Position numbers and translations under genes: made by a program. DNA of 64,000 nucleotides from the IMG/VR virus record IMGVR_UViG_3300025276_000020; one strand, 5' to 3'. Every line of letters starts with the position of its first letter. Within the stretch, counting starts at the first letter, position 1. This DNA comes from a virus. Below are positions 1,818-12,732 of this stretch, in pieces. Below the pieces are notes generated by a model, which saw only the letters and a program-made list of their open reading frames with translations, was not told the DNA's origin and searched no databases.

Positions 1818-2777
1818 ATGGAACTACTAACTATCTGGAGCCTTATTGGGTTTCTTTTTGCCGCTTATGCAGTAATTGCAAATGATTCAGTGCAGACGCT
1901 CGGCACTTGGATGGCATCAAACAATGAGCGATTCAACTACAAGACTATGTGGGCAGCCGCAAGTGCTGTGCTACTAGCAACACTGTGGTATGGTTGGACT
2001 GTAAATGGTGGAGACATCAGTTATGGTCGATTGAATAAGATTCCCTGGCAAGAAGTTCAGTGGTATCATGCCGCCGCACCAGGAATACTCGTACTACTTA
2101 CAAGACTAGGTGTACCGGTATCAACATCCTTTCTAGTGTTGAGTGCTTTTGCAAGTACTTTTGTGCTAGAAAAGATGTTGATGAAGAGCATCATGGGTTA
2201 TGGTATTGCCGCTCTGTTTGCATACGGTGTGTGGTACGTTGTATCACGTACACTTGATGAGGCAGAACCAGTACAAGAAAAGAACAAAAACTATTGGCGA
2301 ATAGCGCAGTGGTTTGCAACAGGCGGATTATGGTGGACTTGGTTGTCGCATGATATGGCTAATATTGCTGTGTTCTTACCTCGTGTTGTGCCAGTCGATC
2401 TAATGTTCTTGATATCATCTGTTTTCGTGATTGGTCTATTCTTTATGTTTAAAGAACGAGGTGGTAAGATTCAACAGATTGTACTAGAGAAGCACAACAC
2501 AAGATATGTCCGTAGTGCAACTCTGATCGATTTGTTCTATTGGTTATGTCTGTACTTCTTCAAAGAACTTAATGATATTCCTATGTCAACTACGTGGGTC
2601 TTTGTTGGTATGCTTGCTGGTCGTGAACTTGCTATCGCAACGTTTACAGGTAAGATGAAAATAAAATCTGTATTCCCTTTAGTGGGAAGAGACTTTATGA
2701 AGATGATGATTGGACTCGGTGCTTCAGTTGCTATCGTCTTAACAATACATTATGTACTGATACCAAACGGACTATAA
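1818..2777 (+). CDS. PiT/PHO4-like inorganic anion (phosphate/sulfate) permease
   Basis: Multi-TM protein with two PiT-like repeats: ANDSVQTLGT...GVPVSTS and HDMAN...IPMSTT. Confidence 0.65.
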   Translation: MELLTIWSLIGFLFAAYAVIANDSVQTLGTWMASNNERFNYKTMWAAASAVLLATLWYGWTVNGGDISYGRLNKIPWQEVQWYHAAAPGILVLLTRLGVPVSTSFLVLSAFASTFVLEKMLMKSIMGYGIAALFAYGVWYVVSRTLDEAEPVQEKNKNYWRIAQWFATGGLWWTWLSHDMANIAVFLPRVVPVDLMFLISSVFVIGLFFMFKERGGKIQQIVLEKHNTRYVRSATLIDLFYWLCLYFFKELNDIPMSTTWVFVGMLAGRELAIATFTGKMKIKSVFPLVGRDFMKMMIGLGASVAIVLTIHYVLIPNGL

Positions 2778-2778
2778 A

Positions 2779-2925
2779 ATGATAGATAGGGTCAGGAAAG
2801 CATTGACAGGTAAAAGATCACGTGTTATACTGATCCTATCCTTCACATTCTTCTTAGTGAAGGGTCTCGCATGGTTAGCTCTATGGGCATATGCGATGTA
2901 TTTTGGTTACACATTTTTTGATTAA
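2779..2925 (+). CDS. 48-aa membrane peptide (MIDRVRKALTGKRSRVILILSFTFFLVKGLAWLALWAYAMYFGYTFFD); not in the ORF track
   Basis: Translated by hand; starts 1 nt after the permease stop; basic N-terminus followed by a TM segment. Confidence 0.6.
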   Translation: MIDRVRKALTGKRSRVILILSFTFFLVKGLAWLALWAYAMYFGYTFFD

Positions 2926-2929
2926 TGTC

Positions 2930-2967
2930 TTGACAAGTGCGTCAAAATGGTGTAAACTGTATAAATA
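2930..2967 (+). promoter_or_regulatory. Tandem sigma70-type promoter and T4 late promoter upstream of the tmRNA
   Basis: TTGACA (2930)-17 nt-TAAACT (2953); TATAAATA at 2960-2967. Confidence 0.8.
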
Positions 2968-2971
2968 AGAC

Positions 2972-3272
2972 GTAGGTTGACAGTTGTTAATCTACAATTT
3001 GATTTGTTGAAGCAGATTGATACTGAACAGGACTCGGGTTCGAATCCCGACAGCTCCACCAAAAGCATACTGAATATGGCTAGTATGTTTTTGATGGGGC
3101 TGAACTGGGAATCGACTGGCAGGGTAGAAAAGTGGAGAATCCGGGTACGAGCTCCGTTAACGCAAGAAACTAAAGTAAACGCAAACGATAATTTTGCTCC
3201 TGTAGACTACGCCCTAGCGGCATAGTTGTACGGGGTTCGCCAGTACCTGTCAACAGAAACTGGCACCTTTTT
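2972..3272 (+). ncRNA. ssrA: Circularly permuted two-piece tmRNA; tag (A)ANDNFAPVDYALAA
   Basis: Acceptor piece has the T-arm GGGTTCGAATCCC and ends CAGCTCC-A-CCA at 3061. A hairpin intervening segment spans 3062-3095. The coding piece starts GGGGCTG at 3096 and pairs to give a G3:U70 alanine stem. Tag frame 3181-3225; 3' hairpin followed by a U-run. Outer ends are approximate. Confidence 0.93.
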
Positions 3273-3298
3273 ACGAAACAAACAAAGAAAGAAAACAG

Positions 3299-3661
3299 AT
3301 GAAAAACGTAATTTTGGCTACGGCCGCACTAGTAGCCTCAGCATCAGCAGTCGCCGCATTCGATGTGACTGACACATTTAGTATTGACAGCGAAGTAAAA
3401 ACGTGGTATAATACAAGTCAATCAACATGGACTGCACACTACGAAGTTAAACCAACTTACTCACCCTCGGCTCTACCAGGTATGGCTGTATATGTGATGA
3501 ACGATGGCGATCTACGTGATGTAAAGTATGATGGCGTTGAACTTGGAATGGAATACAAAATGGATAACTCAATGGTTAGCCCAGTATTGAAAGCCAAGGT
3601 AGGATATGATGAAGATTGGAATCGTGGTGACATTTTTGTCGGTGCAACTTTCAACTTCTAA
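3299..3661 (+). CDS. Second small outer-membrane beta-barrel-like protein
   Basis: Ala-rich signal peptide; amphipathic strands; ends IFVGATFNF with a terminal Phe. Confidence 0.65.
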   Translation: MKNVILATAALVASASAVAAFDVTDTFSIDSEVKTWYNTSQSTWTAHYEVKPTYSPSALPGMAVYVMNDGDLRDVKYDGVELGMEYKMDNSMVSPVLKAKVGYDEDWNRGDIFVGATFNF

Positions 3662-3725: not shown

Positions 3726-3983
3726 ATGACAGGTATTATTATCCCCTCAAGCGATCACGACAAAAAGCGTATCAAAGAATGTATGCAAGAGATAAGTAAC
3801 TCTTATCTACGACAGGAAGCTGAACGTGAGTTTGTCAAAGAAGCCCTAATCTCTCTAGAAGACGATGTAGGCATCCCCAAAAAATATCTAGGTAAAATGG
3901 CTCGTATCTATCATAAGCAGAACATGAGCGAATTGCTGTCCGAAATCTGTGAGATCGAAGCTTTATTGGAAAGTGTTCAATAA
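3726..3983 (+). CDS. dsbA: T4 DsbA-like double-stranded DNA-binding protein
   Basis: 85-aa helical protein with ...IPKKYLGKMARIYHKQ...; T4 dsbA-33-59-32 synteny. Confidence 0.7.
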   Translation: MTGIIIPSSDHDKKRIKECMQEISNSYLRQEAEREFVKEALISLEDDVGIPKKYLGKMARIYHKQNMSELLSEICEIEALLESVQ

Positions 3984-4461: not shown

Positions 4462-4656
4462 ATGAAAGAAATTTCAGCAAATATCGCTAAGGGTGTACCA
4501 TACATTGATGCAGTGATTGTATACGCAGAATCGTATGGACTGGAAGTAGAGGTAGTTGGAGAGATCATTCGAAGATCACCTGTACTTAAGGCAAAGATTT
4601 ATAGAGAAGCAGAAGAACTAAATATGGTAGAGAAGTTAACAAGGCTGCCAGTGTGA
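4462..4656 (+). CDS. 33: gp33 late-promoter transcription co-activator (start may be slightly upstream)
   Basis: YIDAVIVYAE...LKAKIYREAEELNM..RLPV; immediately upstream of gp59. Confidence 0.85.
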   Translation: MKEISANIAKGVPYIDAVIVYAESYGLEVEVVGEIIRRSPVLKAKIYREAEELNMVEKLTRLPV

Positions 4657-5331: not shown

Positions 5332-6270
5332 ATGACAACATCATTCTCTGCCTTAAAGAAGGCACGTACTTCATCTTTCGATAAACTGAATTCTCAGTTA
5401 CAGAAGATGGGATCACCCAATAACAACAAAGGCGATGATCGCTTCTGGAAACCAGAAGTAGACAAAGCTGGCAATGGTTATGCCGTGATTCGCTTTTTAC
5501 CAGCACCGTCAGGTGAAGATATGCCATTCGTTCGTGCGTGGGACCATGGCTTTCAAGGACCAGGTGGTTGGTACATTGAAAACTCTCTTACAACTTTAGG
5601 TCAAGACGATCCAGTCTCTGAGTACAACTCAAAGCTTTGGAACTCTGGTCATGACGAAGATAAAGAAACTGCTCGTAAGCAGAAGCGCAGGTTATCATAC
5701 ACTGCTAACATCTATATCGTGAAGGATAGTGCTAACCCATCACGTGAAGGTCAAGTTTATCTTTATAAGTTTGGTAAGAAAATCTTCGACAAGCTGAACG
5801 ATGCAATGAATCCTCAGTTTCAAGACGAAGATCCGATCAACCCATTTGACTTTTGGGAAGGTGCAGATTTCAAATTGAAGATCCGTCAAGTAGAAGGCTA
5901 TCGTAACTACGATAAGTCTGAGTTTGACTCGATTTCTCCTATCAGTGATTCATCTGGTACAGCGTTATCAGACGAAGCCATGGAAGAAAATTGGAATAAG
6001 CAACATTCTCTAGCAGATATTGTCGATCCTAAAAACTTCAAGTCTTATAATGAACTGAAAGCTAAATTGTATAAGGTTCTAGGTCTTGATGGCAGTAAAC
6101 ACGCACCCACAACAACTGCTGAGGACGATAGTACGGGTATGAACTTTGCTCCTAACTTTAAAGAGCGTGAAGCTCCTGAAGTGAGCGAGGCTTCATCCCC
6201 AACTCTTGCGAGTGACGACGGAGACGGAGAGTCTCTAGATTTCTTCAAGAGTCTAGCTGAAGATAGTTAA
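5332..6270 (+). CDS. 32: gp32 single-stranded DNA-binding protein
   Basis: DDRFWKPEVDKAGNGYAVIRFLP, HGFQGPGGWYIENSLTT, FWEGADFKLKIRQVEGYRNYDKSEF; acidic tail. Confidence 0.97.
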   Translation: MTTSFSALKKARTSSFDKLNSQLQKMGSPNNNKGDDRFWKPEVDKAGNGYAVIRFLPAPSGEDMPFVRAWDHGFQGPGGWYIENSLTTLGQDDPVSEYNSKLWNSGHDEDKETARKQKRRLSYTANIYIVKDSANPSREGQVYLYKFGKKIFDKLNDAMNPQFQDEDPINPFDFWEGADFKLKIRQVEGYRNYDKSEFDSISPISDSSGTALSDEAMEENWNKQHSLADIVDPKNFKSYNELKAKLYKVLGLDGSKHAPTTTAEDDSTGMNFAPNFKEREAPEVSEASSPTLASDDGDGESLDFFKSLAEDS

Positions 6271-11664: not shown

Positions 11665-12732
11665 ATGTCTACAGGCAGAATAACACCAGCGGAAACTGTA
11701 ATAGATCAGAGAATGAAGAAGCGTAATAGCTCTACTCTGACTTTCCCGCACACGCTTGGTCACCATGCCATGATATTTAACTTTAAAGAGTATAGCTACG
11801 GCAATTCTGCTCACGCTACAGTAGTAAATACCGAGAGCATCGTTTTACCTTTGCCTAAAAATCTTCAAGACAATATGAATATCAAAGTCGGCGCTGATGA
11901 GATTGGAGTAGCTGGATCAATGGCAGCAAATGCCGCTAAAGGCATGAAGAATATTGGCGGTATAGGAGGGTTAGCGACAAAGATATCAGGTATGTTTAAT
12001 ACGACTCTAGATGCGGCTAAAGGAGCGTCTGCGGCTGATATTAATGTCGCAAATGCACAAGCAGTTGTATCAGGAGCGACAGACACTGCCTTATTTCTTG
12101 CGAGTGCAGGACTAGGTGCTATCGGACCAGACCTTGCGAAAGGTATTGGAGCAGGAACAGGAACTGCTGTTAACCCGTATGCAACATTAGTATTCAGCGG
12201 AGTCGATCTAAAAGTACACACATTCGAATGGACATTATCACCTGATAGTCCTGAAGAAGCAGATACGTTAAGACGAATTATTGGCACTATTCAAAATCAG
12301 ATCACTCCCGAGATGTCTGGAGTTGGTGGAGTTAAAGTAGAAGAATCTCTTAGTTCTGTAGGAGAGACTACACTATCAAGAGGTCTATTAAAATATCCTT
12401 CGATGGTTGATTGCTTCTTTTACGGTATTGATAGCAATTTCTTCTATAAAATGAAGACGTGTATGATCAGTCAGTTTAATGTTGACTATGCACCTAACGG
12501 TATTGCATTAAATAGAGGTGGTAAGCCAAGCGCAGTGAGAATTAATATGGTTATGACAGAGGCAGCTATTCATACGAAAGCTGACTACGGTGCTGAACTG
12601 TTTCTACCACCTGCTGTAGCAGAAGAAGAGAGCGAAGAGACCGCAACAAACGAGACACAAGACGGATCAGGAGATAAATTAGACAGCAATGGTGTTCCGA
12701 TACCTGCAAATCAAGGAGGAGCAACACCATGA
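11665..12732 (+). CDS. 48: gp48 baseplate tail-tube cap
   Basis: IVLPLPKNLQD, NPYATLVFSGVDLKVHTFEWTLSPDSPEEA, VDYAPNG. Confidence 0.85.
   Translation: MSTGRITPAETVIDQRMKKRNSSTLTFPHTLGHHAMIFNFKEYSYGNSAHATVVNTESIVLPLPKNLQDNMNIKVGADEIGVAGSMAANAAKGMKNIGGIGGLATKISGMFNTTLDAAKGASAADINVANAQAVVSGATDTALFLASAGLGAIGPDLAKGIGAGTGTAVNPYATLVFSGVDLKVHTFEWTLSPDSPEEADTLRRIIGTIQNQITPEMSGVGGVKVEESLSSVGETTLSRGLLKYPSMVDCFFYGIDSNFFYKMKTCMISQFNVDYAPNGIALNRGGKPSAVRINMVMTEAAIHTKADYGAELFLPPAVAEEESEETATNETQDGSGDKLDSNGVPIPANQGGATP

Follow-up and report, generated by a model that had tools for sequence, protein, structure and literature searches.

A two-piece, circularly permuted tmRNA gene of the alpha type on an uncultured marine T4-like phage

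The uncultured marine T4-like phage to which the window (the whole stretch of DNA analysed, 64,000 nucleotides) belongs possesses a two-piece, circularly permuted tmRNA gene of the alpha type. A phage-borne gene of this kind had been claimed in the initial annotation, which had proposed ARAGORN and the Rfam alpha_tmRNA model as checks, and both of these as well as a second Rfam model agree in placing such a gene at about 2946-3267. In the whole window, ARAGORN recognizes a single permuted tmRNA, to which it assigns the tag ANDNFAPVDYALAA. Model RF04321 (tmRNA_permuted) matches over its full length (model positions 1-213) with 99.2 bits (cut-off 47, E=4e-18 over the whole window), and RF01849 (alpha_tmRNA), likewise over its full length (model positions 1-355), with 83.4 bits (cut-off 50, E=4e-21 over the whole window); alpha is the top-scoring tmRNA family of its Rfam clan for this gene, and no other RNA family reached the threshold in the Rfam scan of the window. 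Judged from its sequence features, the gene is very probably functional, and we consider it highly likely that it represents a functional two-piece tmRNA gene of a marine T4-like myophage and the positional counterpart of the ssrA gene of the Pelagibacter phages (pelagimyophages) Mosig and HTVC008M.

All elements of the gene are situated on the + strand, and sequence reading and programs found those listed in the initial annotation where it had placed them. A promoter of the sigma70 (early) type (2930..2958), matching the consensus at 10 of 12 positions in a scan, consists of TTGACA (2930-2935), a spacer of 17 nt, and TAAACT (2953-2958), and one base past this -10 hexamer follows TATAAATA (2960..2967), a motif of the T4 late-promoter type with a putative promoter function. 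The acceptor piece (2972..3061), as delimited by the Rfam alignments and ARAGORN, comprises a leader hairpin, the 3' strands of P2, the T-arm, the 3' strand of the acceptor stem, and ACCA; its 5' end, at 2972, is predicted from the promoter position. The leader hairpin (2972..2995) has a 10-bp stem and the loop AGTT and includes GTTGACAG at 2976-2983. The T-arm (3034-3050), with a 5-bp stem and the loop TTCGAAT, passes directly into the acceptor 3' strand CAGCTCC (3051-3057), the discriminator A (3058), and an encoded CCA (3059-3061). Between the two pieces lies a spacer of 34 nt (3062..3095), which according to its sequence and to the fold of the precursor forms a hairpin of 11 bp, including one G-U pair, that extends the acceptor stem; it would be removed on maturation.

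The coding piece (3096..3267) begins with the acceptor 5' strand GGGGCTG (3096-3102), which forms all 7 of 7 pairs with CAGCTCC, including the G3:U70 pair of alanine identity, and continues in the RF01849 and RF04321 alignments with a D-loop analogue, the 5' strands of P2, the PK1 region, the tag frame, and a 3' hairpin. The tag frame called by ARAGORN (3181..3225) reads from GCA at 3181 through GCA at 3222 and ends with the stop codon TAG (3223-3225), such that the tag has an Ala resume codon at its start and a hydrophobic degron of the ALAA type at its end. The 3' hairpin (3239..3272) consists of the stem GCCAGT (3239-3244) / ACTGGC (3259-3264) with a 14-nt loop, ACCTGTCAACAGAA, and is followed by TTTTT (3268-3272); together they probably constitute the 3' end or the terminator of the tmRNA gene. 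This hairpin is aligned to the 3' end of RF01849 at high posterior probability, and its stem covaries among the window, HTVC008M, and Mosig. Having a loop of more than 8 nt, it escaped the terminator scan.

Concerning the fit to the alpha model, the gene has no counterpart of around 43 positions of RF01849 that follow the stop codon and precede the 3' hairpin. P2 and PK1 were placed by the Rfam model alignment, in which several P2 pairs are non-canonical, and one P2 pair is, as judged by eye, A-U in one and U-A in the other of the window and the IMG/VR contig L238. The minimum-energy cofold contained neither a canonical T-arm nor P2; it was relied on for the leader and spacer hairpins only.

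The window is part of a T4-like marine myophage with structural genes for the baseplate hub, wedge, and tail-tube-cap and with the replication genes gp32 and gp59. Its tmRNA gene is followed by small genes, by the gene of a gp33-like late-transcription factor (4462-4656), by gp59, and by gp32, in this order; a dsbA gene is found at 3726-3983. The gp32 of the window is around 55% identical to that of cyanomyophages and of an uncultured marine virus. In Mosig (GenBank MT647606), SsrA is annotated directly before a gp33-like gene, with gp59 further downstream; HTVC008M contains an unannotated permuted tmRNA (90.6 bits on RF04321) upstream of its gp33-like gene; and in the IMG/VR contig L003, a permuted tmRNA at the same locus is followed by gp59 and gp32. 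Since the locus is the same in these three, the tmRNA gene has evidently belonged to this group of phages for long and was not captured recently. A heme oxygenase gene (42-578), a ferredoxin-dependent bilin reductase gene (718-1407), and a gene similar to that of a cyanophage outer-membrane protein (1455-1808) are situated in the window just upstream of the tmRNA region. No connection of PcyX phages with tmRNA was found in the literature.

A blastn search with positions 2700-3500 against 50,697 GenBank phages yielded nothing; the RNA is too diverged for a DNA search, so that a covariance model was needed to find the copies of Mosig and HTVC008M. An exact 26-mer of the tRNA-like domain is found in six IMG/VR contigs, four of which (L001, L002, L004, and L006) have the same tag, and the closest further relative, L238, has the tag ANDDFAPVDYALAA. 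A degenerate scan of IMG/VR with the 3' loop revealed at least 49 further contigs with permuted tmRNAs of the alpha type. The acceptor stem with 7 of 7 pairs, including G3:U70, is kept in all 43 phage versions that were parsed (out of around 49 unique ones among the matches listed in one IMG/VR scan), and the T-stem has 5 of 5 pairs in all of them but one. As pairing is kept in 9 acceptor-stem and 19 T-stem variants, compensatory changes are abundant. The base of the spacer hairpin likewise exhibits compensatory changes and changes from G-U to G-C in L001, L003, and L238, where the hairpin loops range from 32 to 133 nt. The tags of the divergent phage versions examined differ from each other, and all of them end in ALAA.

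Some of these phage genes exhibit peculiarities of their own. The IMG/VR contigs L003 (80 kb; tmRNA at 1715-2078) and L005 (64.5 kb; tmRNA at 5424-5787) agree exactly with the window in the T-arm, in the acceptor strand, and at the base of the spacer hairpin; the remainder of the tmRNA is different (beta_tmRNA with 88.5 bits, cut-off 84; tag ANANDYALAA), and gp32 of the phage is only 60% identical to the window's. To judge from these sequences, it looks as if a cassette of tRNA-like domain plus spacer had been exchanged between phage tmRNA genes with alpha or beta bodies. The spacer of another related phage tmRNA (L198:1886-2045) is 160 nt long, starts with AAGGAG and ATG, and contains a frame of 48 codons with a hydrophobic C-terminus; the 34-nt spacer of the window is devoid of any gene. 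A different permuted phage tmRNA (L007:3111-3486 and L008:2771-3146; 68.8 bits on RF04321) overlaps with its 3' end a tRNA-Phe gene, and its ARAGORN tag, DKVMQLNPIMKLEAAA, is possibly mis-called.

Concerning the origin of the gene, the phage versions score between 68 and 89 bits on RF01849, whereas 160-313 bits are reached by the cellular alpha tmRNAs of 146 of the 151 genomes sampled. A phylogeny together with host ssrA had been suggested along with the initial annotation; in a tree with 43 alphaproteobacterial tmRNAs, the tmRNA of the window falls into an all-phage clade (support 0.94), and a distance of at least 1.07 substitutions per site separates it from even the nearest of these 43. This midpoint-rooted tree, based on around 300 positions of high divergence, is weakly supported at its deep nodes; it is used solely for the statement that, by sequence, no sampled bacterium is close to the tmRNA of the window. 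The exact 26-mer of the tRNA-like domain had no match in 185,579 bacterial species genomes. Matches to a 16-mer of the 3' loop were mostly due to chance, real tmRNAs being present at three of ten alphaproteobacterial loci checked, i.e., in a Loktanella MAG (tag ANDNRAPVALAA), a Novosphingobium MAG, and a Sphingomonadales MAG, and in a BLAST search of the tmRNA against these three genomes the 30-nt loop region alone was matched. Naming a host from this 16-mer was rejected, three real matches being too few. The type of tmRNA is also unsafe as a guide to the host, because the phage Melnitz has an alpha-type tmRNA yet infects OM43 (PMC9004378). One alphaproteobacterial genome contains a second match to RF01849 (G118:C5:288509-288849), which with 72.8 bits lies within the range of the phage versions; this copy may be prophage-borne or degenerate and was left out of the tree.

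The ORF caller had drawn an 82-aa reading frame (2977..3225) across the locus, which the initial annotation regarded as a miscall. As a protein gene this ORF was rejected: the open frame merely runs into the tag, has no PHROG match, and is disrupted in L001 by indels (-2 and +1 nt), in agreement with that judgement. It would be hardly credible that the locus is a non-functional passenger, be it a recently captured host ssrA, a remnant of an integration site, or this very protein gene. Although the ORF can be drawn and temperate phages often have ssrA fragments (PMC9004378), both halves of the tmRNA are complete, their stems covary across phages, synteny of the locus is retained between phages that share no more than 55-60% identity in gp32, and no close bacterial donor was found, such that this explanation is largely refuted.

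The organization of the gene corresponds to that of a class already published. A two-piece tmRNA with an early promoter was described by Buchholz et al. 2022 (PMC9004378) for the Methylophilales phage Melnitz, whose ssrA lies directly upstream of its transcription coactivator gene. Of the 133 unique phage tmRNAs counted in the same study, 53 were of the two-piece form, 50 of these coming from marine or aquatic samples, and of 47 Melnitz-like contigs, 17 contained a permuted tmRNA; those permuted phage tmRNAs cluster with alphaproteobacterial ones, and a glutamine riboswitch in the 3' part is a common but not a defining feature (PMC9004378). The premise of the initial annotation that phage tmRNAs are mostly one-piece is outdated in view of these 53 of 133 and of the SsrA annotated in Mosig. 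A tmRNA database of 2025 holds 79 bacteriophage sequences (PMC11915505). The tmRNA of the window is thus no new kind of phage cargo but a new example of a class already published for marine phages; what it adds is small, namely a conserved promoter tandem, an optional leader hairpin, and the finding of no close bacterial source.

With the ssrA genes of Melnitz, Mosig, and HTVC008M, the gene shares the two-piece tmRNA of the alpha type, the location on a marine T4-like myophage, and the sigma70-type promoter upstream, and with Mosig and HTVC008M also the position upstream of a gp33-like gene (with gp59 also in Mosig) and the finding of no smpB. Despite this general similarity, there are some differences among them: The tag is ANDNFAPVDYALAA in the window, ANFNEYALAA in HTVC008M, and GEDNFALAA in Mosig. 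The T-loop of the window is the tRNA-like TTCGAAT, whereas Melnitz and ssrA genes of the pelagimyophage type possess TGCAAyw. The glutamine riboswitch is present in Melnitz and Mosig but not in the window, where no match was obtained at the gathering threshold nor at E<=1. Compared with all three, the window has an additional 5' leader hairpin and an explicit TATAAATA right after the -10 box, and its RNA sequence is beyond the reach of blastn from those of Mosig and HTVC008M.

Alphaproteobacteria possess a cellular two-piece tmRNA of the Caulobacter type, reportedly described by Keiler, Shapiro, and Williams in 2000. The gene of the window has in common with these tmRNAs (RF01849) the permuted order, the G3:U70 pair, a tag that starts with ANDN and ends with ALAA, the conserved loop of the 3' hairpin (...CAACAGAA...), and a promoter that immediately precedes the acceptor piece. 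It differs from them in its lower score (83 bits as against 160-313), in the stretch of around 43 model positions lacking after the stop codon, and in the T-loop, which is GGCRGTA in the alphaproteobacterial tmRNAs; furthermore, it is situated on a phage for which no smpB was found in the window, unlike the cellular alphaproteobacterial tmRNA. The tmRNAs of mycobacteriophages of the Bxz1 group and of Bacillus phage G are ribosome-rescue RNAs borne by phages as well, for which no phage smpB is reported, but they are one-piece, have the standard gene order, and belong to unrelated phage groups and hosts (PMC4131195). Knowledge of tmRNA and of these phages is left unchanged by the gene of the window. 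It constitutes one more well-resolved example of a recurrent trait of marine T4-like phages, i.e., a ribosome-rescue RNA of their own that would work with the SmpB of the host, and tests of function in the cultured phages Mosig, HTVC008M, and Melnitz could profit from three of its details: the conserved tandem of promoters, the likewise conserved base of the spacer hairpin, and the finding of no close bacterial donor.

A search for smpB, suggested with the initial annotation, did not reveal such a gene: an HMM from five alphaproteobacterial SmpB proteins gave a best E of 0.38 against all six-frame ORFs of the 64-kb window, and PF01668 (SmpB) is absent from the complete genomes of HTVC008M and Mosig and from three IMG/VR contigs. 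As no smpB was found in the window or in these relatives, the tmRNA would have to use the SmpB of the host, and its activity would depend on SmpB and AlaRS of the host. From the arrangement of the gene, the following course of events is conceivable. Host RNA polymerase would produce one precursor of around 300 nt from the sigma70-type promoter, with the adjacent TATAAATA as a probable second source through the polymerase modified by gp55/gp33. In this precursor, GGGGCUG (3096-3102) would pair with CAGCUCC (3051-3057), and the 34-nt spacer hairpin would stack on the stem thus formed. RNase P of the host would then cut before G3096, and 3'-end enzymes of the host would trim up to the encoded CCA at 3061, leaving pieces of around 90 nt and around 170 nt held together by the helices P1 and P2. 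Charged by host AlaRS via G3:U70, the RNA would be delivered by host SmpB and EF-Tu to ribosomes stalled on broken mRNAs, where translation would resume at the GCA at 3181 and add ANDNFAPVDYALAA as a degradation tag for host proteases. The likely benefit for the phage is that ribosomes are kept available and amino acids recycled while nucleic acids of the host are degraded.

A phage RNA that has to compete for the SmpB of the host might, on the other hand, act mainly as a decoy, soaking up SmpB (or AlaRS or EF-Tu) and thereby inhibiting or redirecting trans-translation of the host. Besides the lack of smpB in the window and the complete relatives, this would agree with the RNA of mycobacteriophage DS6A, which consists of the tRNA-like domain only, and with the inhibitory effect described for such molecules (PMC4131195). 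A pure decoy, however, would have no need of a tag, whereas the tag frame is intact and the ALAA end is present in every divergent phage version examined, and the elements on the message side fit the Rfam models; we consider this explanation quite improbable. Still less can be said for the proposal of the initial annotation that the phage tmRNA replaces a host tmRNA destroyed during infection by a toxin or a defence RNase, for which the window provides no supporting evidence. Early-plus-late promoter motifs are compatible with such a replacement, as is the occurrence of the tRNA-like-domain sequence in none of the 185,579 bacterial species genomes; but no nuclease or defence gene was identified adjoining the tmRNA gene, and many marine T4-like phages share the trait, which is widespread and has been inherited vertically at a single locus, as would be equally expected of a general housekeeping benefit. 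Replacement is accordingly rated as very improbable, and a tmRNA that rescues ribosomes with the help of host factors is preferred.

Concerning contacts between the two pieces, GTTGACAG of the leader (2976-2983) is the exact reverse complement of CTGTCAAC (3247-3254) within the 14-nt loop of the 3' hairpin, and the initial annotation had taken this as a clasp by which the pieces could hold each other. The complementarity is real and unusual in comparison with shuffled sequences: leader and 3' loop form 8 bp with -12.3 kcal/mol, a value that 0.75% of shuffled leaders reach. In L001, a pairing of -12.2 kcal/mol (0.65% of shuffles) exists in another register; in L002, the pairing is not significant (-6.6 kcal/mol, 14% of shuffles). 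The bases concerned also form the local 10-bp hairpin at 2972-2995, with similar energy, and this leader hairpin is kept with altered stem sequence in both L001 and L002. The pairing is, however, not a general feature, as none of 28 bacterial alpha tmRNAs exhibits a significant one, and the Loktanella tmRNA possesses the identical 3' loop without a matching leader. Neither is it required, since L238, in which the acceptor piece begins a few bases past TATAAATA, lacks any leader hairpin at the 5' end although its 3' loop is the same. Furthermore, the loop core ...AACAGAA is invariant in the bacterial and phage versions examined, such that its conservation has a cause other than the clasp; we suspect, on our own reading, that the 3' element is a pseudoknot with an A-rich loop. 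A clasp as an extra of this particular clade is possible, although we think it unlikely.

The sequence of promoter motifs, a sigma70-type promoter and then TATAAATA, which the initial annotation had pointed out, is conserved in relatives. The arrangement CTTGACA-N17-TAwwyT-N-[T/G]ATAAATAAGA is kept in L001, L002, and L238, with differing sequence of the 17-nt spacer, and the tandem TTGACA-N17-(-10)-N-TATAAATA is thus found in four sequence variants of the window's clade; the late motif is intact in L001 and L238, and L002 has GATAAATA. In the window, TATAAATA also lies 26-42 nt upstream of the starts of the large structural genes at 11665, 33184, and 50308; overall it is not enriched there (10 observed vs 7 expected). 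Among the matches listed, 11 of 50 unique phage tmRNAs have TATAAATA at a fixed place, 35-47 nt before the T-arm or around 70 nt where a leader hairpin is present, and in five of these 11, outside the window's clade, TTGAC lies 23 nt ahead of the motif. By our own estimate, chance would place TATAAATA within an AT-rich stretch of 128 nt in roughly one of 100 sequences. An early-plus-late promoter is, on these motifs, a reasonable reading, which would somewhat extend the published remark on an early promoter; the claim that the RNA is supplied throughout infection was drawn from promoter motifs and goes further than these.

A more far-reaching scenario can be sketched, in which the tandem of early and late promoter would cause the precursor to be made all through infection, the lineage-specific leader hairpin would alternate with a pairing of 8-10 bp between leader and 3' pseudoknot loop, either as an inter-piece lock or as a switch of stability or activity, and, separately, the cassette would have been exchanged in L003 and L005; we regard it as doubtful and would give it little weight. 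Two further, near-perfect promoters of the sigma70 type lie less than 600 bp from that of the tmRNA gene. The one at 2803-2831 (TTGACA-17-TATACT, 11/12, with TG) is located inside a predicted small ORF (2779-2925), and the one at 3384-3412 (TTGACA-17-TATAAT, 12/12, with TG) inside another (3299-3661); either strong early promoters are clustered here, or the starts of these ORFs have been called wrongly.
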